64,000 bases of DNA from Escherichia coli O127:H6 str. E2348/69. GTDB lineage: Bacteria > Pseudomonadota > Gammaproteobacteria > Enterobacterales > Enterobacteriaceae. Below the pieces are notes generated by a model that saw only the letters and a list, made by a program, of their open reading frames with translations, had not been told where the DNA came from and did no database searches. A program made the position numbers and the translations under genes. Location of the stretch: assembly GCF_000026545.1 (NCBI RefSeq), contig NC_011601.1; one strand, written 5' to 3'. This document shows, piece after piece, positions 1-8,717 of the stretch; within the stretch, counting starts at the first letter, position 1; every line of letters begins with the position of its first letter.

Positions 1-2
1 CA

Positions 3-182
3 GAAGAAAAAAGAATCAAGGACGAAGAAGAGCGTAGAGCAAAGGATAAAGCTCACCGGAAAGAAGTAAATAACAAAATACTTGCTGACCTTATCAAGGT
101 TGGTGCATCAGAAGATGTTGCTAAAAATATCATAACAGCCATCGCAAAAGGCGAAGTATTCGCAACAAAAATAACCTACTAA
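3..182 (+). CDS. Hypothetical phage protein, C-terminal fragment (5' end outside window)
   Basis: Open frame from window edge to TAA at 180..182; lysine/glutamate-rich translation. Confidence 0.3.
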   Translation, partial: EEKRIKDEEERRAKDKAHRKEVNNKILADLIKVGASEDVAKNIITAIAKGEVFATKITY

Positions 183-205
183 TAAACCAACATAAGGAAC
201 CACCC

Positions 206-337
206 ATGATTTACGCAATCGCGGGAGGCGCTCGCATGGGTGCCTTCCAACTAAATGAATCTTTACTTGAACGAATCACCCGTAAATTACGTGACGGATG
301 GAAAAGAGTTGAGGTCTTATTATGCGCAATGAAATAG
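206..337 (+). CDS. Small hypothetical phage protein (43 aa)
   Basis: ATG at 206 preceded by AAGGA; overlaps next ORF. Confidence 0.3.
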   Translation: MIYAIAGGARMGAFQLNESLLERITRKLRDGWKRVEVLLCAMK

Positions 338-474
338 CCATCAATCACCAGATGCTTCGTGCTGCACAGAACAAAGCAGTAATAGCCAGATTTATTGGTG
401 ATTCAAAAATGTGGCTTGAAGCAAATAAAGCGATGAAATCAGCTATCAACCTTCCGTGGTATCGCAGGAAATGA
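322..474 (+). CDS. Small hypothetical phage protein (50 aa)
   Basis: ATG 322 overlaps the end of the previous ORF; stop overlaps the next start (ATGA at 471..474). Confidence 0.3.
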   Translation: MRNEIAINHQMLRAAQNKAVIARFIGDSKMWLEANKAMKSAINLPWYRRK

Positions 475-629
475 GTTTTACAGATAACTGGTCAGACGAA
501 GAATTCATTCGTCAGATGAAAGAATTAATCGGTAACGAAGGAGATATTCATGTCACTTGCAACCACAGTGAAGGAGAGCAAGTTACAGAGACGCATGTAC
601 ACGCAGAAAGCTCTCTGGTATCGCCATAA
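471..629 (+). CDS. Small hypothetical phage protein (52 aa)
   Basis: ATG 471 preceded by AGGAA; part of a coupled small-ORF stack. Confidence 0.3.
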   Translation: MSFTDNWSDEEFIRQMKELIGNEGDIHVTCNHSEGEQVTETHVHAESSLVSP

Positions 630-728
630 TGGTGACCGCGAAGGAATGCGGGTATGCCTTAATTTGTCCCGAGTCGAAGTATTAAATCAGCGTTATTTCC
701 TTGGGCCGTGTCCATTCTGAGGTGAATT

Positions 729-1436
729 ATGGATTTGAACAAATTCGATGAGCCATTCAGCCCTGAAGATATAGAATGGAGAATACAGCAAAGCGGTAAA
801 ACACGCGATGGCAAGGTGTGGGCTATGGTGCTGGCTTATGTCACGAACAGGGCAATCATGAAACGCCTTGACGATGTTTGCGGCAAAGCAGGATGGCGCA
901 ATGAATACCGAGATATTCCCAACAACGGAGGCGTTGAATGCGGCATATCAATCAGGATTGATTCCGAATGGGTAACCAAATGGGATGCTGCTGAAAACAC
1001 GCAGGTAGAAGCCGTAAAAGGTGGTCGTTCCGGTGCAATGAAGCGCGCTGCCGTTCAGTGGGGAATCGGTCGGTATCTGTATAACCTTGAGGAAGGTTTC
1101 GCACAAACATCTCTCGATAAAAAGCAGGGATGGCACAGGGCAAAACTCAAGGATGGAACAGGATTTTACTGGCTCCCTCCATCGCTGCCGGGATGGGCAA
1201 TCCCAGCATCAGATAACAAACCATCACCAGAAAATACCAACCAGACATCTCCATCGGTTGACTGCGAACAAATCCTGAAAGACTTCAGCGATTATGCATC
1301 AACAGAAACTGACAAGAAAAAACTCATCGAGCGTTATCAGCGTGACTGGCAATTAATGGCTGGCAACGAGGAGGCACAGGCTAAATGCGTTCAGGTAATG
1401 AACATCAGAGTTAACGAACTAAAACAGGCGGCATAA
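729..1436 (+). CDS. Rad52/Sak-like single-strand annealing protein (putative)
   Basis: 235 aa; motif AMKRAAVQWGIGRYLY resembles the Rad52 N-domain signature; sits upstream of ssb in a phage recombination module; GAGG RBS. Confidence 0.5.
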   Translation: MDLNKFDEPFSPEDIEWRIQQSGKTRDGKVWAMVLAYVTNRAIMKRLDDVCGKAGWRNEYRDIPNNGGVECGISIRIDSEWVTKWDAAENTQVEAVKGGRSGAMKRAAVQWGIGRYLYNLEEGFAQTSLDKKQGWHRAKLKDGTGFYWLPPSLPGWAIPASDNKPSPENTNQTSPSVDCEQILKDFSDYASTETDKKKLIERYQRDWQLMAGNEEAQAKCVQVMNIRVNELKQAA

Positions 1437-1904
1437 ATGTCTCACTTGGACGGAATTATTAAAAGATTCGAGTCCAGCTACAAAGTTAATGAAACAACAG
1501 GTTGCTGGGAGTCTACCTATTCAAAAAACAAAGGAGGATACACAAAATTTGTAGCCTTTGGCGTAACAATGCTTTCTCATCGGGTTGCTTTTGAGCTTTA
1601 TCACTCCCCCATTCCATCTGGGAAGATGGTTTGCCACAAATGCGATAACCAATGCTGCGTTAATCCTGAACATCTCTTTTTAGGTAGCGCGCAAGAAAAC
1701 ATGGACGACAAGATAGCAAAAGGAAGGCATCGTGGAGCCAAGAAAGGTCATGCTCATCATGGTGCAAAATTAACAGAGTGGCAGGTTATAGAAATTAGGA
1801 AAAGACTCTCTGAAAAAGAGAGTCAGTACAAGATAGCAAAAGACATGGGTGTATCTCAATCAATTATAAGCAACATAAAAACTGGCAAGAGGTGGAGCAA
1901 ATGA
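1437..1904 (+). CDS. HNH endonuclease with C-terminal HTH
   Basis: Motif [23 protein letters not shown] (HNH_3-type); start abuts the stop of the upstream gene; stop overlaps ssb start. Confidence 0.7.
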
Positions 1905-2407
1905 GTTCTCGCGGGATAAATAAGGTGATTATCCTTGGTCGGGTAGGACAAGACCCGGAAGTTCGATACTCACCATCAGGAACAGCGTTCGCTAACCTGA
2001 CAATAGCCACGTCAGAACAATGGCGAGATAAAAATACTGGCGAGCAAAAGGAATTGACTGAATGGCATCGTGTTGCTGTATCCGGGAAACTGGCTGAGGT
2101 CGTGGGGCAGTATGTGAAAAAAGGTGATCAGATTTATTTCGAGGGAATGCTGAGAACCAGAAAGTGGAAAGACCAGTCAGGGCAAGACCGTTACACAACC
2201 GAGGTTCATGTCGGAATTAATGGCGTGATGCAAATGCTTGGCGGCATTGGCGACAGCAAACAACAAGCAGCCAGCAGGCAATCACAGAAGCCACAGCAGC
2301 AATCATCACCAGCACAACACAACGAACCTCCGATGGATTTTGACGACGATATACCCTTTGCACCAGTAACTCTCCCCTTCCCTCGTCACGCTATTCACGC
2401 AATTTAA
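1901..2407 (+). CDS. ssb: Single-stranded DNA-binding protein (prophage SSB) with 15-residue extension after DDDIPF
   Basis: N-terminus [25 protein letters not shown]-fold core, Q/P-rich linker and DFDDDIPF motif; ATG 1901 with AGGTGGAG RBS (the ORF track starts at GTG 1892). Confidence 0.85.
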
Positions 2408-2420
2408 TCAGGAGAAAATC

Positions 2421-2714
2421 ATGCCAGCGCCTCTGTATGGTGCGGATGACCCGCGCCGCTGTTCCGGCAATTCCGTATCGGAGGTGCTGGATAAATTCAG
2501 AAAAAACTACGATCGAATAATGTCTCTACCGCAGGAAACGAAAGAGGAAAAGGAATTTCGCCACTGTATATGGCTTGCAGAGAAAGAAGAACGCGAGCGA
2601 ATTTACCAGACATCAATCCGACCATTCCGCAAAGCCACATATACCCACTTCCCTGAAATTGACCCGCGCCTGCGTAATTACCGCTCACGTTATGGCGCTA
2701 TCAGTAATGACTGA
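2421..2714 (+). CDS. Hypothetical phage protein (97 aa)
   Basis: ORF with AGGAGA RBS directly after ssb. Confidence 0.45.
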
Positions 2715-2724
2715 GGAATTTACC

Positions 2725-2892
2725 ATGAGAGGACTTGCATACAATCCCGGCATTCTTCCGGCAGAAATGATTATTCGCCAACGCGTAAAGCCAATGCCAT
2801 CGAGAGAGGAATTGCTTAAGAGAAATTCTTCTCCGTCAGTGAATCAAAACAAATATCTGAATGCGATGTGGCGCAAAGGAGGCAACCAGTGA
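2725..2892 (+). CDS. Small hypothetical phage protein (55 aa)
   Basis: ATG 2725 with GAGGAA RBS; the track's longer 2575 start overlaps the previous gene. Confidence 0.35.
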
Positions 2893-3158
2893 GTGAGTCA
2901 AAATGCCAAATTAATGGCAACAAGATAGAACCGTGCGCGGCGTTGGCAAAATCTCTCGAATATGGAAATCCAACATTCAAGAGTAAAGGCATATTTATCC
3001 CGGAGCGTGTGAACATAAACACCGGCGAGTCATGCATAGATATTGCTCAAATTCACTCGGGGAAATATATCGGTCGTGGCGTTGCAATGTGCTTTTGCCC
3101 GTTCTGTGGTGAAAGTTTGAAAACGTGGGAAGCGGAGGCAGCCAGTGAGCAAAATTGA
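2890..3158 (+). CDS. Hypothetical phage protein with C-terminal CPFC motif
   Basis: GTG 2890 preceded by AGGAGG; start overlaps the upstream stop. Confidence 0.4.
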
Positions 3159-3783
3159 CCATCAGGCACTGCGTGAGGCGGCAGAGCAGGCAATGCATGA
3201 CGACTGGGGATTTGACGCGGACCTTTTCCATGAGCTGGTAACACCATCGATTGTGCTGGAACTGCTGGATGAACAGGAAAGAAACCAGCAATACATCAAA
3301 CGCCGCGACCAGGAGAACGAGGAGATTGCGCTTACGGTTGGGAAGCTGCGTGTTGAGCTTGAAGCAGCAGAGAACAACCTTATTGATAGTGAATGCCATG
3401 TTGCTGAACTGGAAGAAGCTCTACGCGATAAGCAGGCGTTACTTGAAGCCTCAGAAAAGCGCAACGCAAAATTACAAAGCGAGAATGCATACATCCGCAA
3501 CCGGTACAAAGAACTGGACCTATTAATCGGGAAAAACATTCTGGTCATGCAGGCTGCCATTATCGAATGGCAGGCAACTGGCGACGCTAAGAGCGGACTA
3601 GCATGGATTTATAACACACTGTTTGGCCCTGGCGAATTACCGGACGAATCTGAGAAAGATGCTCAGGCCTACTTTAATCGCAAATATGCACCGATTGACG
3701 AAAAGCTTATGGCGCTTCACAAGTGGTTTTGGGAACAAAGTGAAGCCGAGCGCGCCGCTGGCATTCGCATCAAAGGAGAGTGA
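3145..3783 (+). CDS. Coiled-coil phage protein (ea-region type)
   Basis: 212 aa; acidic, heptad-rich central segment; position in the ea region. Confidence 0.5.
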   Translation: MSKIDHQALREAAEQAMHDDWGFDADLFHELVTPSIVLELLDEQERNQQYIKRRDQENEEIALTVGKLRVELEAAENNLIDSECHVAELEEALRDKQALLEASEKRNAKLQSENAYIRNRYKELDLLIGKNILVMQAAIIEWQATGDAKSGLAWIYNTLFGPGELPDESEKDAQAYFNRKYAPIDEKLMALHKWFWEQSEAERAAGIRIKGE

Positions 3784-3784
3784 G

Positions 3785-3976
3785 ATGAACGGACAAATCT
3801 CAATTGTTCGACCGGGAGCATGTGACGATTGCGAGATACGAATGATTATTCGTCTGGCGAGGGGGAAAACAATAACTGCTCTCATTACTCCAGAAAATCT
3901 CGCATTAGCATTAACCGGAAAGTCAGACCTGCCAGTAGAGCTAAAGCTGCGAAATGTTGAGATTAAGGTGAAATAG
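3785..3976 (+). CDS. Small hypothetical phage protein (63 aa)
   Basis: ATG 3785 with GGAGAG RBS immediately after the upstream stop. Confidence 0.4.
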   Translation: MNGQISIVRPGACDDCEIRMIIRLARGKTITALITPENLALALTGKSDLPVELKLRNVEIKVK

Positions 3977-3978
3977 CT

Positions 3979-4374
3979 ATGACCACTATTACCAAAGAGC
4001 GACTGCTGACAATCAAGCAGTGGCGCGAAACATACGGACCGGGTAGCAACGTTGTACTGCCAGCAGAAGAAGCGGAAGAACTGGCACGAATTGCTCTGGC
4101 ATCGCTGGAAGTCGAGCCGATAGGTTTCCGTTGCAGGCGCAATGATAACCTTGGTGATTGGAGTTACGTATATCATCGAGAGCCAGATGATTTTGAGCGC
4201 AAACATTTAGTGATAGAGGGCATTTACGCCGCCCCTCCAGCGCAAGTAGTACCGAAAGAAAAACCAATGCCTAATCCTCTTAGCATGTACGCGGTTGATG
4301 CTGTTGCCGCTATTGCAGAGGTGAGAGGCTGGAACGCCTGCCGTGCCGCTATGCTTCAGGGGAAAGGAGACTGA
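3979..4374 (+). CDS. Hypothetical phage protein sharing an N-terminal module with the 4584..5216 gene
   Basis: 131 aa; MTTIT start and ELARIALASLEVEP block shared with the downstream paralogue. Confidence 0.5.
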   Translation: MTTITKERLLTIKQWRETYGPGSNVVLPAEEAEELARIALASLEVEPIGFRCRRNDNLGDWSYVYHREPDDFERKHLVIEGIYAAPPAQVVPKEKPMPNPLSMYAVDAVAAIAEVRGWNACRAAMLQGKGD

Positions 4375-4375
4375 T

Positions 4376-4573
4376 ATGGATAAAAACACCACTGCTTACT
4401 GGAATCTGTCACTTGATACCGAATGCCCAAAATGCGGTCACAATTTCGATCTGCTTTGTGACGCTGATTTCTGGGAGTTTTCTGGAGCTAAACAGGCATG
4501 TGAAGAAATAAAAGGTTACGAAACATGCTGTCCAGAATGTAACCATGAATTTAAAACAGATTTCGTGTATTGA
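4376..4573 (+). CDS. Small zinc-ribbon protein (CPKC ... CPEC)
   Basis: 65 aa; two CxxC pairs; AGGAGA RBS before ATG 4376. Confidence 0.45.
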   Translation: MDKNTTAYWNLSLDTECPKCGHNFDLLCDADFWEFSGAKQACEEIKGYETCCPECNHEFKTDFVY

Positions 4574-4583
4574 GGCATAACAA

Positions 4584-5216
4584 ATGACCACTATTACCAG
4601 AGAACAGGCACAGAAAATTATTGAAGCAGCCGATGAGGTTATTAGTGCGCTTGCCGGAACTAACGAGGATGTTCACCCTGGTAGCGATAACATGCTACGC
4701 CTGTGGGATGACCTGAATGACCGTTACGCGCCCCCTGAAGTTGTGCGTGAGCTGGCACGAATTGCACTGGCATCACTGGAAGCAGAGCCTGTAAGCCAAA
4801 CTTACAACTTGCCAGAATTAATCGAAGGGATGGAAGTTTCCATTGATGTAAGCACTTGTGATGCTGATTTAGGTAATCGCTATTTCGGTACCGTCACCGA
4901 GGCGTTAGAACTTGATACAGCCAAGAATGGTTACATCCTCCTAGTTCAGGACGCAGAGCCAAACTTCGATGTAAATGGCAACTCTCCGGTAATTCCGGGC
5001 GGTTGGATAAGCTGTAGTGAGCGAATGCCGGATAGCAAAACAGCCGTTCTTGTTGCCAGGGAGTTTGACAGGAAAGGTGACTGGCGAATGAAATGGGCGA
5101 CTTACATCCCGGGGCATCCTGACGCTAATGATGGGTGGGTAATACCTGGTGCGTCGTGGATACCATCACACTGGATGCCGCTACCAGAACCGCCGCAGGA
5201 GGTTAACCATGGCTAA
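4584..5216 (+). CDS. Phage protein with DUF551-like C-terminal domain
   Basis: 210 aa; N-terminal module paralogous to 3979..4374; C-terminal W-rich segment (WISCSERMP ... WIPSHWMPLPEPP). Confidence 0.55.
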   Translation: MTTITREQAQKIIEAADEVISALAGTNEDVHPGSDNMLRLWDDLNDRYAPPEVVRELARIALASLEAEPVSQTYNLPELIEGMEVSIDVSTCDADLGNRYFGTVTEALELDTAKNGYILLVQDAEPNFDVNGNSPVIPGGWISCSERMPDSKTAVLVAREFDRKGDWRMKWATYIPGHPDANDGWVIPGASWIPSHWMPLPEPPQEVNHG

Positions 5217-5316
5217 CCTGCAACTTGCCGTCAAAGGTGAATAACAATCCTCGCACTCGCGGGGATTTCTTTTATCTGAACTCGCTACGGCGAGTTTTGT
5301 TTTATGGAGATGATAA

Positions 5317-5484
5317 ATGCACTTCCGAGTCACAGGTGAATGGAATGGAGAACCATTCAACAGAGTTATCGAAGCGGAGAACATCAACGACTGCTATGAC
5401 CACTGGATGCTGTGGGCGCAGATAGCACATGCAGACGTAACCAATATTCGAATTGAAGAACTGAAAGAACACCAAGCCGCCTGA
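5317..5484 (+). CDS. Small hypothetical phage protein (55 aa)
   Basis: ATG 5317 with GGAGA RBS; stop lies in the loop of a terminator hairpin. Confidence 0.35.
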   Translation: MHFRVTGEWNGEPFNRVIEAENINDCYDHWMLWAQIAHADVTNIRIEELKEHQAA

Positions 5485-5496
5485 TGGCGGTTTTTT
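5477..5496 (+). terminator. Rho-independent terminator upstream of torI
   Basis: CCGCC-TGAT-GGCGG hairpin followed by TTTTTT. Confidence 0.5.
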
Positions 5497-5541
5497 ATTA
5501 CCTGATTTGCAGGTTCGATTCCCTATTCGGAGATAGCACTC

Positions 5542-5742
5542 ATGCAACACGAATTACAGCCTGATTCACTGGTTGATTTGAAATTCATCATGGCCGATAC
5601 TGGCTTCGGTAAAACCTTCATCTATGACCGGATTAAGTCCGGCGACCTGCCAAAAGCCAAAGTTATCCACGGGCGAGCAAGATGGTTATATCGTGACCAT
5701 TGTGAATTCAAAAATAAGCTCTTAAGCCGCGCCAATGGGTAA
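5542..5742 (+). CDS. torI: Prophage excisionase / recombination directionality factor TorI
   Basis: 66 aa translation recognised as TorI (MQHELQPDSLVDLKFIMADTGFGKTFIYDRIKSGDLPKA...); lies next to the att core. Confidence 0.9.
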   Translation: MQHELQPDSLVDLKFIMADTGFGKTFIYDRIKSGDLPKAKVIHGRARWLYRDHCEFKNKLLSRANG

Positions 5743-5814
5743 AATAGCGGGTAAAATATTTCTCACATCTAAAAAACTCCATTCCAATCAATCCCCTGCC
5801 GCTTCAAGTAGATG

Positions 5815-5830
5815 TCTGCAGGGGACACCA
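5815..5830 (+). repeat. Prophage attR core (copy of the tRNA-Arg argW 3' end)
   Basis: TCTGCAGGGGACACCA matches the 3' end of argW; located 73 bp downstream of torI. Confidence 0.7.
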
Positions 5831-6269
5831 GATACCCTTCAAACGATATCTACCTTCACCCCGTAAAAGATAAGTTTGGCAGCACATTTGCCCTATCTAC
5901 TCATTTTTCCTGCAACAGGTTGAAATCTCAACACGGTCAGAAAACGCTGATGACTAAACAGCCCTGGGCCGGGCGATGTAACCATCACACACAATCCTGA
6001 TCGCGAAATATGGCGTGACTTGATACTTCACTCCACAATGCTTTCCTTGATGAATTCGCAGGCCCGTGATACACGGGACAGGTCGCTGAATTACGACAAT
6101 GCCCTGGAAATCAGCGAGCCGTGTATCCAGAGTACATTTGAGCGACTGTACCAGAACATGAATGAGGCGTTTGGATTAGGCGATTATTAGCAGGGCTAAG
6201 CATTTTGGTATTATTATTTTCCGGTTGAGGGATATAGAGCTATCGACAACAACCGGAAAAAGTTTACGT

Positions 6270-7517
6270 TTATATTGCTGAAGGTACTGGCGTTTCCATC
6301 ACTATTTGCTCACGTTTTTTACTCAGGAAGAAAATGCCAAATAGCAACATCAGGCAGACAATACCCGAAATTGCGAAAAAAACCGTCTGGTAGCCTGCGT
6401 GGTCAAAGAGTATCCCAGTCGGCGTTGAAAGCAGCACAATCCCCAACGAACTGGCAATTTGAAAACCAATCAGAAAGATCGTCGACGACAGGCGCTTATC
6501 AAAATTTGCCACGCTGTATTTGAAGACGGATATGACACAAAGTGGAACCTCAATGGCATGTAACAGCTTCACTAATGAAATAATCCAGGGGTTAACGAAT
6601 AGCGCGCAGGAAAGGATACGCAACGCCATAATCACAACACCGATAAGTAATGCATTTTTTGGCCCTACCCGATTCACAAAGAAAGGAATAATCGCCATGC
6701 ACAGCGCTTCGAGTACCACCTGGAATGAGTTGAGATAACCATACAGGCGCGTTCCTACATCGTGTGATTCGAATAAACCTGCATAAAAGACAGGAAAGAG
6801 TTGTTGATCAAAAATGTTATAGAAAGACCACGTCCCCACAATAAATATGACGAAAACCCAGAAGTTTCGATCCTTGAAAACTGCGATAAAATCCTCTTTT
6901 TTTACCCCTCCCGCATCCGCCGCTATGCACTGGTGATCCTTATCTTTAAAACGCATGTTGATCATCATAAATACAGCGCCAAATAGCGAGACCAACCAGA
7001 AGTTGATATGGGGACTGATACTAAAAAATATACCGGCAAAGAACGCGCCAATAGCATAGCCAAAAGATCCCCAGGCGCGCGCTGTTCCATATTCGAAATG
7101 AAAATTTCGCGCCATTTTTTCGGTGAAGCTGTCAAGCAAACCGCATCCCGCCAGATACCCCAGGCCAAAAAAGAGCGCCCCCAGAATTAGACCTGCAGAA
7201 AAATTGCTTTGCAGTAACGGTTCATAAACGTAAATCATAAACGGTCCGGTCAAGACCAGAATGAAACTCATACACCAGATGAGCGGTTTCTTCAGACCGA
7301 GTTTATCCTGAACGATGCCGTAGAACATCATAAATAGAATGCTGGTAAACTGGTTGACCGAATAAAGTGTACCTAATTCCGTCCCTGTTAATCCTAGATG
7401 TCCTTTCAGCCAAATAGCGTATAATGACCACCACAGCGACCAGGAAATAAAAAAGAGAAATGAGTAACTGGATGCAAAACGATAGTACGCATTTCTGAAT
7501 GGAATATTCAGTGCCAT
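6270..7517 (-). CDS. cscB: Sucrose:H+ symporter (oligosaccharide:H+ symporter family)
   Basis: 415 aa, 12-TMS-like; N-terminus MALNIPFRNAYYRFASSYSF recognised as CscB. Confidence 0.9.
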   Translation of the reverse strand: MALNIPFRNAYYRFASSYSFLFFISWSLWWSLYAIWLKGHLGLTGTELGTLYSVNQFTSILFMMFYGIVQDKLGLKKPLIWCMSFILVLTGPFMIYVYEPLLQSNFSAGLILGALFFGLGYLAGCGLLDSFTEKMARNFHFEYGTARAWGSFGYAIGAFFAGIFFSISPHINFWLVSLFGAVFMMINMRFKDKDHQCIAADAGGVKKEDFIAVFKDRNFWVFVIFIVGTWSFYNIFDQQLFPVFYAGLFESHDVGTRLYGYLNSFQVVLEALCMAIIPFFVNRVGPKNALLIGVVIMALRILSCALFVNPWIISLVKLLHAIEVPLCVISVFKYSVANFDKRLSSTIFLIGFQIASSLGIVLLSTPTGILFDHAGYQTVFFAISGIVCLMLLFGIFFLSKKREQIVMETPVPSAI

Positions 7518-7578: not shown

Positions 7579-8502
7579 TTACTTCTCACTTTCCAGTTCT
7601 TGTCGACATGGCAGCGCTGTCATTGCCCCTTTCGCTGTTACTGCAAGCGCTCCGCAACGTTGAGCGAGATCGATAATTCGTCGCATTTCTCTCTCATCTG
7701 TAGATAACCCCGTAGAGGACAGACCTGTGAGTAACCCGGCAACGAACGCATCTCCCGCCCCCGTGCTATCGACACAATTCACAGACATTCCAGCAAAATG
7801 GTGAACTTGTCCTCGATAACAGACCACCACCCCTTCTGCACCTTTAGTCACCAACAGCATGGCGATCTCATACTCTTTTGCCAGGGCGCATATATCCCGA
7901 TCGTTCTGTGTTTTTCCACTGATAAGTCGCCATTCTTCTTCCGAGAGCTTGACGACATCCGCCAGTTGTAGCGCCTGCCGCAAACACAAGCGGAGCAAAT
8001 GCTCGTCTTGCCATAGATCTTCACGAATATTGGGATCGAAGCTGACAAAACCTCCGGCATGCCGGAGCGCCGTCATCGCAGTAAATGCGCTGGTACGCGA
8101 AGGCTCGGCAGACAACGCAATTGAACAGAGATGTAACCATTCGCCATGTCGCCAGCAGGGCAAGTCTGTCGTCTCTAAAAAAAGATCGGCACTGGGGCGG
8201 ACCATAAACGTAAATGAACGTTCTCCTTGATCGTTCAGATCGACAAGCACCGTGGATGTCCGGTGCCATTCATCTTGCTTCAGATACGTGATATCGACAC
8301 CCTCAGTTAGCAGCGTTCTTTGCATTAACGCACCAAAAGGATCATCACCGACCCGACCTATAAACCCACTTGTTCCGCCTAATCTGGCGATTCCCACCGC
8401 AACGTTAGCTGGCGCACCGCCAGGACAAGGCAGTAGCCGCCCGTCTGATTCTGGCAAGAGATCTACGACCGCATCCCCTAAAACCCACACTTTGGCTGAC
8501 AT
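7579..8502 (-). CDS. cscK: Fructokinase (PfkB family)
   Basis: 307 aa; GG motif and C-terminal DTxGAGD ribokinase-family signature; position in the csc cluster. Confidence 0.9.
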   Translation of the reverse strand: MSAKVWVLGDAVVDLLPESDGRLLPCPGGAPANVAVGIARLGGTSGFIGRVGDDPFGALMQRTLLTEGVDITYLKQDEWHRTSTVLVDLNDQGERSFTFMVRPSADLFLETTDLPCWRHGEWLHLCSIALSAEPSRTSAFTAMTALRHAGGFVSFDPNIREDLWQDEHLLRLCLRQALQLADVVKLSEEEWRLISGKTQNDRDICALAKEYEIAMLLVTKGAEGVVVCYRGQVHHFAGMSVNCVDSTGAGDAFVAGLLTGLSSTGLSTDEREMRRIIDLAQRCGALAVTAKGAMTALPCRQELESEK

Positions 8503-8607
8503 TTTTTTCCCTTAAATTCATCTGACTTACGCATAGTGATAAACCTCTTTTTCGCAAAATCGTCATGGATTTACTAAAACATGCATATTCGATCACAAAA
8601 CGTCATA

Positions 8608-8683
8608 GTTAACGTTAACATTTGTGATATTCATCGCATTTATGAAAGTAAGGGACTTTATTTTTATAAAAGTTAACGTTAAC
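8608..8683. promoter_or_regulatory. Divergent cscK/cscA control region: two GTTAACGTTAAC palindromes flanking a CRP-like site
   Basis: Perfect 12-bp palindrome at 8608..8619 and 8672..8683; TGTGA-N6-TCGCA at 8623..8638. Confidence 0.5.
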
Positions 8684-8717
8684 AATTCACCAAATTTGCT
8701 TAACCAGGATGATAAAA

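Follow-up and report, generated by a model that had tools for sequence, protein, structure and literature searches.

The DNA analysed here (the window, i.e., 64,000 nucleotides of contig NC_011601.1 of Escherichia coli O127:H6 str. E2348/69) harbors a csc locus with genes for the transport and hydrolysis of sucrose. The csc stretch is 100% identical to E. coli E2348/69, and the csc region is carried by 2,663 of 5,426 complete E. coli genomes, i.e., by about half of them. In 466 of these 2,663 csc-positive genomes the sequence over positions 8400–8900 is at least 99% identical to the E2348/69 allele. The genes of the locus are arranged as follows:

6270–7517, minus strand: cscB, sucrose:H+ symporter of the LacY family (TIGR00882 oligosaccharide MFS transporter, 593.8 bits)
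7579–8502, minus strand: cscK, fructokinase, leading the leftward cscKB operon (NCBIfam NF006957, 505.9 bits, above cutoff; RefSeq annotation)
8718–10151, plus strand: cscA, sucrose hydrolase (invertase) (TIGR01322 scrB_fam, 478 bits; RefSeq name cscA)
10159–11154, minus strand: cscR, LacI-family repressor of 331 amino acids (Pfam PF00356 and PF00532; RefSeq CDS)

A preliminary description, made from the sequence, had read cscK and cscA as a divergent pair with a neighboring LacI-family gene cscR, and RefSeq annotation and family profiles bear out this gene context. The intergenic region between cscK and cscA comprises 215 bp and is annotated in RefSeq without any regulatory feature. Prophage-type genes (ssb, anti-RecBCD, ead/Ea22-like, DUF551 and torI; window positions 1–6200) border the csc genes on one side, and a dsdX fragment (11384–11602) and a frameshifted dsdA (11620–12944), followed by emrY and emrK, border them on the other. 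These flanks fit the known csc/dsd recombination hotspot. Two tRNA clusters are present elsewhere in the window, one with two tRNA-Ala(GGC) on the minus strand (49099–49289) and one with three tRNA-Val(TAC) and a tRNA-Lys(TTT) on the plus strand (51988–52385).

Within the intergenic region, the following elements were located, listed from the cscK side to the cscA side and without assignment of a strand:

8582–8597: CRP site 2, TGCATATTCGATCACA, candidate cAMP-CRP site; centre at 8589.5, 41 bp from that of CRP site 1
8608–8619: O1, putative upstream operator, nearer to cscK; perfect 12-bp palindrome with a central CG
8623–8638: CRP site 1, TGTGATATTCATCGCA, candidate cAMP-CRP site; centre at 8630.5, one mismatch to TGTGA-N6-TCACA
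8672–8683: O2, putative downstream operator, nearer to cscA; the same 12-bp palindrome, followed by a conserved AAT

The preliminary description had reported the palindrome GTTAACGTTAAC at 8608–8619 and at 8672–8683, with TGTGA-N6-TCGCA between the two copies at 8623–8638. Both copies were confirmed (centres at 8613.5 and 8677.5, 64 bp apart), as were the sequence and the place of the intervening motif; CRP site 2 had been overlooked. GTTAACGTTAAC is present in exactly two exact copies in the 64-kb window. As a given 12-mer is expected only about 0.004 times by chance in 64 kb, the presence of two copies in a single 215-bp intergenic region is far beyond chance. As a direct repeat, the two sites have 14 bp in common, AGTTAACGTTAACA. 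If up to two mismatches are allowed, the window contains seven matches, five of them imperfect, compared to 2.05 expected from shuffled sequences; the five imperfect matches were rejected as functional sites in view of this shuffle expectation and of the location of four of them inside long open reading frames. The sole near-match outside of open reading frames of at least 150 amino acids, ATTAACGTTAGC at 30715–30726 with two mismatches to the operator, is probably a chance match. Upstream of cscR, where a site for autoregulation was sought, no operator copy with two or fewer mismatches was found. For the CRP-like core alone, the number of matches in the window is not significant (three with at most one mismatch compared to 2.05 expected), and CRP site 1 is convincing because of its position and its conservation across genera. 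Both CRP sites match the TGTGA-N6-TCACA pattern of cAMP-CRP sites; the left half of CRP site 2 in E. coli (TGCAT) is poor and degenerate, amounting to three mismatches over the whole site.

The conservation of these elements was analyzed in CscA-bearing genomes, one per species, which resulted in 80 loci. A module was counted if a locus contained an exact palindrome pair, or one exact copy and one copy with a single mismatch, and 56 modules including the one in the window were obtained. They originate from Escherichia, Citrobacter, Tatumella, Samsonia, Pectobacterium, Pluralibacter, Yersinia, Rahnella, Ewingella, Cedecea, Erwinia, Rosenbergiella, Serratia, Pantoea, Klebsiella, Kosakonia, Phytobacter and Zobellella. 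The operator spacing is 64 bp in 41 of these modules, 63 bp in 12 and 62 bp in three. The order of the elements is conserved, i.e., CRP site 2, O1, CRP site 1, a TT-containing hexamer at O1+49 and O2 followed by AAT, and the bases around these elements vary freely. O1 is invariant in the 56 loci, which cover more than 15 genera, and in other genera its flanks lengthen the palindrome to AATGTTAACGTTAACATT. Directly after O2 an A is nearly invariant and the next AT is well conserved. The offset of CRP site 1 from O1 is the same in all 56 modules (O1+15 to O1+30), and 52 of these sites show zero to two mismatches. In CRP site 2, at O1-26 to O1-11, the right half GATCACA hardly varies; zero to two mismatches over the site were counted in 43 of the 56 modules. 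Yersinia and Winslowiella contain a full TGTGA-N6-TCACA at this place, and the site of Serratia is near-perfect. In every one of the 56 modules O1 is placed between the two CRP sites, 24 bp from CRP site 2 and 17 bp from CRP site 1, measured centre to centre.

Several variations on the module were observed. The right half of CRP site 1 (8634–8638) is TCGCA in E2348/69 and the consensus TCACA in two other Escherichia loci (L001, L002). At the centre of CRP site 1, four bases (O1+21 to O1+24, equivalent to 8629–8632) are TAAC in most non-Escherichia modules (TGTGATTAACATCACA) and are conserved although CRP does not specify these positions; the resulting ATTAACAT resembles an operator half-site with its flank and is absent from the E. 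coli type. In Proteus (L046–L051, L054, L058; e.g., L047, 6818–6898), operators with one mismatch, GATAACGTTAAC and GTTATCGTTAAC, are located 68–69 bp apart between a cscK-like gene and cscA; no recognizable CRP site follows the upstream operator in these loci, and the architecture differs. Loci that combine cscA and cscR with the identical operator pair occur widely in Enterobacterales and are also present in Zobellella. These loci (L006–L080; e.g., L018, 5641–8443; L044, 5632–8422; L075, 5635–8428) encode a LacY-family transporter that shares only about 40% identity with CscB, and cscK is usually missing from them. Their range seems to be wider than the distribution given for csc in PMC11251922.

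The genes next to the module differ between lineages. In Yersinia, Serratia, Rahnella and Cedecea the upstream neighbor is an unrelated gene on the same strand, and the module drives one operon, in which cscA is preceded by the gene for the LacY-family transporter (about 40% identity to CscB). The divergent partner, if present, varies: the E. coli type has cscK, Rosenbergiella has cscB and the Klebsiella/Kosakonia group has cscR at this place. Since many genera keep the operator pair at a promoter that works in one direction, the pair is not confined to divergent transcription. Moreover, the unidirectional modules together with the lineage-dependent divergent gene suggest that both operators and both CRP sites ancestrally serve the rightward promoter. 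In the E. coli arrangement, a leftward promoter is added on the far side of the module.

The regulator encoded next to cscA has the composition expected for a protein binding such palindromes, i.e., a LacI helix-turn-helix (PF00356) and a Peripla_BP_1 sugar-binding domain (PF00532) within its 331 amino acids. GTTAACGTTAAC itself resembles operators of the LacI/GalR family, which are palindromes of about 14–20 bp with a central CG and half-sites of the AAC/GTT type. Furthermore, both copies are placed in the promoter region of sugar-catabolic genes adjacent to a gene for a LacI-family regulator, and they are conserved together with this regulator across the 56 loci. The CscR homologues encoded at the module loci are 53–98% identical and all have the recognition helix V-S-(M/L)-M-T-V-S-R in common. 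Loci without a CscR homologue (Lonsdalea and one Serratia marcescens locus) are also without the palindrome pair. In Providencia and Morganella the regulator is only 48% identical, and here the module is kept with a changed operator centre (GTTAATGTTAAC, GTTAACATTAAC). In these loci (L008, L009, L012–L014; e.g., L009, 5631–5712) the operator centre is non-CG and the hinge of the regulator reads SARMIR compared to SARK(M/I)R elsewhere; hinge helix and operator centre may co-vary. As the operator pair tracks both the presence and the divergence of CscR, the comparison points to CscR, and not to another LacI-family protein, as the factor binding the palindromes.

Alternatively, the palindromes might be chance duplications of a HpaI site, relics of a mobile element or binding sites for another protein such as Cra, and the half-site GTTAAC does resemble the AAC/GTT core of many LacI-family operators. 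Both copies are conserved across more than 15 genera while their flanking bases vary, they co-occur with CscR homologues and are absent where these are absent, and a published operator mutation derepresses the locus (PMC11251922, PMC3938415). This comparative and genetic evidence effectively refutes an origin or function unrelated to CscR, which we regard as extremely improbable.

The csc control region has been described before. As relayed by PMC11251922, Jahreis et al. (2002) identified a 12-bp inverted repeat that is present twice between cscA and cscK and took its copies for putative CscR operators, one of which carried a derepressing (up-) mutation. Later papers also credit this work with cAMP-CRP sites and with a dependence on cAMP. 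A putative Crp-cAMP site adjoining the cscA -35 and conservation of the control elements in five species were also described (PMC11251922; Stephens et al., 2024). The bidirectional promoter was reported to contain two cAMP-CrpA sites and csc expression to be cAMP-CrpA dependent; a cyaA::Tn5 mutant is unable to use sucrose, and mutation of the cscKB operator, which is taken to be O1, recurs in selections for growth on low sucrose (PMC3938415). For an EHEC isolate with a deletion of cscR, RNA-seq revealed upregulation of cscA by 58-fold, of cscK by 156-fold and of cscB by 28-fold; a cscAp-gfp reporter was higher in a clean cscR deletion mutant, and loss of cscR was shown to reactivate dsdA in EHEC (PMC7486766). 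Publications dealing with the control of csc by oxygen or with evolution experiments on sucrose contained no site-level information.

The csc control region of E. coli EC3132 and W (Jahreis et al., 2002, J Bacteriol 184:5307; Sabri et al., 2013, AEM 79:478), as relayed by later papers, belongs to the same locus as that in the window and has the same elements, namely the two 12-bp inverted repeats as CscR operators, the cAMP-CrpA sites and the divergent cscA/cscKB arrangement. There is no essential difference to the E2348/69 allele, in which CRP site 1 contains TCGCA rather than TCACA. The scrY promoter of pUR400 and Klebsiella, as far as its control (Cowan, 1991; Jahreis and Lengeler, 1993) is relayed in PMC11251922, likewise has two inverted-repeat operators for a LacI-family sucrose repressor, ScrR, around the core promoter and a CRP site upstream, as in csc. 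It differs from csc in that ScrR is not orthologous to CscR, the repeats comprise 14 bp and the genes are those of a PTS pathway; moreover, the scrY CRP site is described there as poorly conserved, whereas both csc CRP sites are conserved.

The published description, supported by the data on cyaA and cscR mutants, matches the repressor and catabolite control of both divergent units that the preliminary description had proposed. Likewise, its assignment of the palindromes to CscR is supported by the published account and by the comparison of 56 loci, and its assignment of the intervening site to CRP agrees with that account and with the conservation across genera. As the CscR operators and the CRP site between them were already published, the preliminary description is a correct rediscovery. 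Taken together, it is very likely that the palindromes are CscR operators and TGTGATATTCATCGCA a cAMP-CRP site, which form one conserved dual-control module with CRP site 2.

The location of the promoters within this module was deduced from positions conserved in 46 non-redundant modules and in seven E. coli-type loci. A scan of 8450–8760 for the sigma-70 consensus found no promoter, which is to be expected for weak CRP-dependent promoters. The conserved positions suggest the following candidate elements:

8537–8544, minus strand: invariant block TGATAAAC (GTTTATCA on the minus strand), tentative candidate for the -10 region of the leftward cscKB promoter
8657–8662, plus strand: putative -35 TTTATT of the rightward cscA promoter, 26.5 bp from the centre of CRP site 1
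8681–8686, plus strand: putative -10 AACAAT at the right end of O2, predicting a start at about 8692–8693

For the rightward promoter, CTTTAT (8656–8661) is invariant in the seven E. coli-type loci, and TT is found at O1+49/50 in 67% of the 46 modules within hexamers such as TTTCCA, TTCTCA and TTTGCA. In lacP1, the distance of the CRP centre to the -35 is 25.5 bp. At the place of AACAAT (O2+9), a hexamer with A at its second and T at its sixth position is conserved in 78% of the 46 modules, and this is the sole place conserved in this manner downstream of the -35-like TT and outside of the operator core; loci with GTTAACGTTACC as O2 contain TACCAT at O2+8 in place of AACAAT. The proposed -10 is confounded with conservation of the operator. 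The spacer between -35 and -10 would be 18, 17 and 16 bp at operator spacings of 64, 63 and 62 bp, respectively. As it tracks the operator spacing and stays within 16–18 bp, the narrow range of 62–64 bp follows from ordinary sigma-70 geometry. The sequence suggests that the rightward promoter is of a lac-like class I, with CRP site 1 at about -61.5 to -62.5 and O2 over the -10. This register would place CRP site 2 at about -103, O2 at -21 to -10 and the centre of O1 at about -79.5.

In lacP1 CRP is located at -61.5, the -35 is TTTACA, the spacer comprises 18 bp and O3 lies at -82. In the class I register, csc resembles lac in its CRP site at about -61.5 to -62.5, in a weak -35 of the TTTAnn type, in the 18-bp spacer and in an auxiliary operator just upstream of the CRP site (about -79.5 compared to -82 for lac O3). 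It differs from lac in that the main operator would lie over the -10 instead of at +11, in that the operators are 64 bp instead of 92 bp apart, in the lack of a tetramerization helix in CscR and in the presence of a second, upstream CRP site.

A register with O2 over the -10 departs from the published layout. According to the account of Jahreis et al. (2002) in PMC11251922, the operators flank the -35 and the -10, and the downstream operator overlaps the start site. In this layout, or with a class II promoter, transcription would start at about 8672–8677 inside O2, with the -35 and the -10 between CRP site 1 and O2, and CscR bound to O2 would block open-complex formation or promoter escape, not recognition of the -10. 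The conserved elements favor a CRP centre at about -61.5 to -62.5, and -41.5 is also possible, as exactly 41.5 bp separate the centre of CRP site 1 from the first base of O2 downstream of it. Escherichia furthermore contains TATAAA at 8666–8671 and TATTTT at 8659–8664 as candidate hexamers. The TATAAA before O2 is restricted to Escherichia, though; between O2-16 and O2-5, no hexamer of the -10 type is conserved, and A at the second and T at the sixth position occur together there in at most 17% of the 46 modules. The TT hexamer and AACAAT, which are conserved, agree with class I instead. A class II register of the rightward promoter was ranked below class I, as no -10 is conserved at the required position, and we regard a class II or published layout as less likely than class I.

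The leftward cscKB promoter is less well defined. The block TGATAAAC is invariant in the seven E. coli-type loci, and TATCAC at 8541–8536 on the minus strand, if tentatively taken as the cscKB -10, would set CRP site 2 at about -61. It follows from such a -10 that no operator is located over the cscKB core promoter. This counts against the proposed layout, as repression of cscKB through O1 alone is left unaccounted for. Leftward promoters overlapping O1, either with AACTAT as -10 or with CRP site 1 serving the leftward direction, were rejected because no conserved -35/-10 fits; moreover, with a leftward promoter overlapping O1, CRP site 2 would cover the core promoter. On the cscK side of O1, an AAA(T)CGTCAT motif is present twice (8561–8566 and 8601–8606), 40 bp apart. 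The copies read ATGACG on the minus strand, which is -35-like, and the motif is only partly conserved in Citrobacter and Tatumella.

The absence of an operator-like sequence over the region required for the cscKB core promoter would agree with an anti-activation by O1 in the manner of CytR or of GalR at OE. CscR sitting between the two CRP dimers would block CRP or the C-terminal domain of the RNA polymerase alpha subunit, and this block, rather than occlusion, would be the main shut-off of the CRP-dependent cscKB promoter. O1 is kept at fixed offsets between two conserved CRP sites with centres 41 bp apart, and an operator extended to 18 bp overlaps the 22-bp CRP site 1 by 3 bp. Furthermore, csc expression needs cAMP (PMC3938415). 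The CytR-CRP complexes at deoP2 and cdd are built similarly, with the site of a LacI-family repressor between tandem CRP sites, an arrangement shown by O1 in 56 of 56 modules. The operator itself is of a different kind: CytR sites are weak, with binding that depends on CRP, and O1 forms a perfect palindrome that does not vary and has the sequence of O2; in addition, the csc CRP sites are 41 bp apart compared to about 52 bp at CytR promoters. In gal, OE lies 19 bp from the centre of the CRP site, compared to 17 bp between O1 and CRP site 1 in csc. The CRP site of gal is located at -41.5. O1 could still overlap the cscKB core promoter. Anti-activation as the main shut-off is doubtful.

The preliminary description had also considered a looping of the DNA between the two operators. 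CscR bound to O1 and O2 would be in contact, comparable to lac O1-O3 or gal OE-OI, with CRP site 1 and the -35 inside a loop of about 64 bp. The spacing of 62–64 bp in the 56 loci corresponds to 5.9–6.1 helical turns at 10.5 bp per turn, which puts O1 and O2 on the same face of the helix, and a bend induced by CRP between the operators could aid the formation of so short a loop. For lac O3 and CRP a co-operative effect is known. The spacing is fully accounted for by the promoter geometry, i.e., by the fixed distances between O1, CRP site 1 and the -35 and the spacer of 16–18 bp, and a 64-bp loop is costly in energy. Moreover, looping of the lac type depends on a C-terminal tetramerization helix in the repressor. 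CscR aligns to residues 5–313 of the 360 residues of LacI and ends 13 residues later, from which it follows that this helix is lacking, and in the LacI NCBIfam model its match reaches only to position 329 of 358. The closest solved structure, 6ndi, a homologue of 334 amino acids, is likewise without the helix. GalR of the gal system is also a dimeric LacI-family repressor lacking the tetramerization helix and acting on two operators (OE and OI); in contrast to csc, these are 113 bp apart, OI is located inside galE and looping needs HU. Lac-type looping is not supported by sequence features of CscR; a loop formed by contacts between dimers, as in gal, is conceivable, but repression by a loop is unlikely overall.

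The preferred reading of the module is a dual control in which, as shown in the literature, CscR represses both cscA and cscKB without inducer and expression requires cAMP-CRP. Most likely, a CscR dimer on O2 (-21 to -10) would occlude the -10 and the spacer and thereby block RNA polymerase. O1 would be located about 80 bp upstream of the rightward promoter and about 85 bp upstream of the tentative leftward cscKB promoter. Wedged between the CRP sites, it probably reduces the CRP-dependent activation of both promoters and/or stabilizes CscR at O2. An inducer derived from sucrose would release CscR, and glucose would lower cAMP and turn off the CRP input, as is established for the family. A further reading is that the rigid geometry reflects an obligatory CscR-CRP complex, either in a CRP-bent DNA loop of about 64 bp or as anti-activation of tandem CRP dimers. 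We consider this improbable; if true, such a complex would explain the silencing of cscKB from one upstream operator.

As a summary, the csc sites act as a positive control, as published regulatory sites were recovered from sequence alone, in a control region that restricts how far sucrose can serve as feedstock for E. coli W and engineered K-12. The additions made here are refinements of known biology and not a new kind of system. They comprise the placement of CRP site 2 at 8582–8597, an alternative promoter register, the unidirectional ancestry proposed for the module and the conservation of a CRP-operator-CRP-promoter-operator module well beyond E. coli and Citrobacter.
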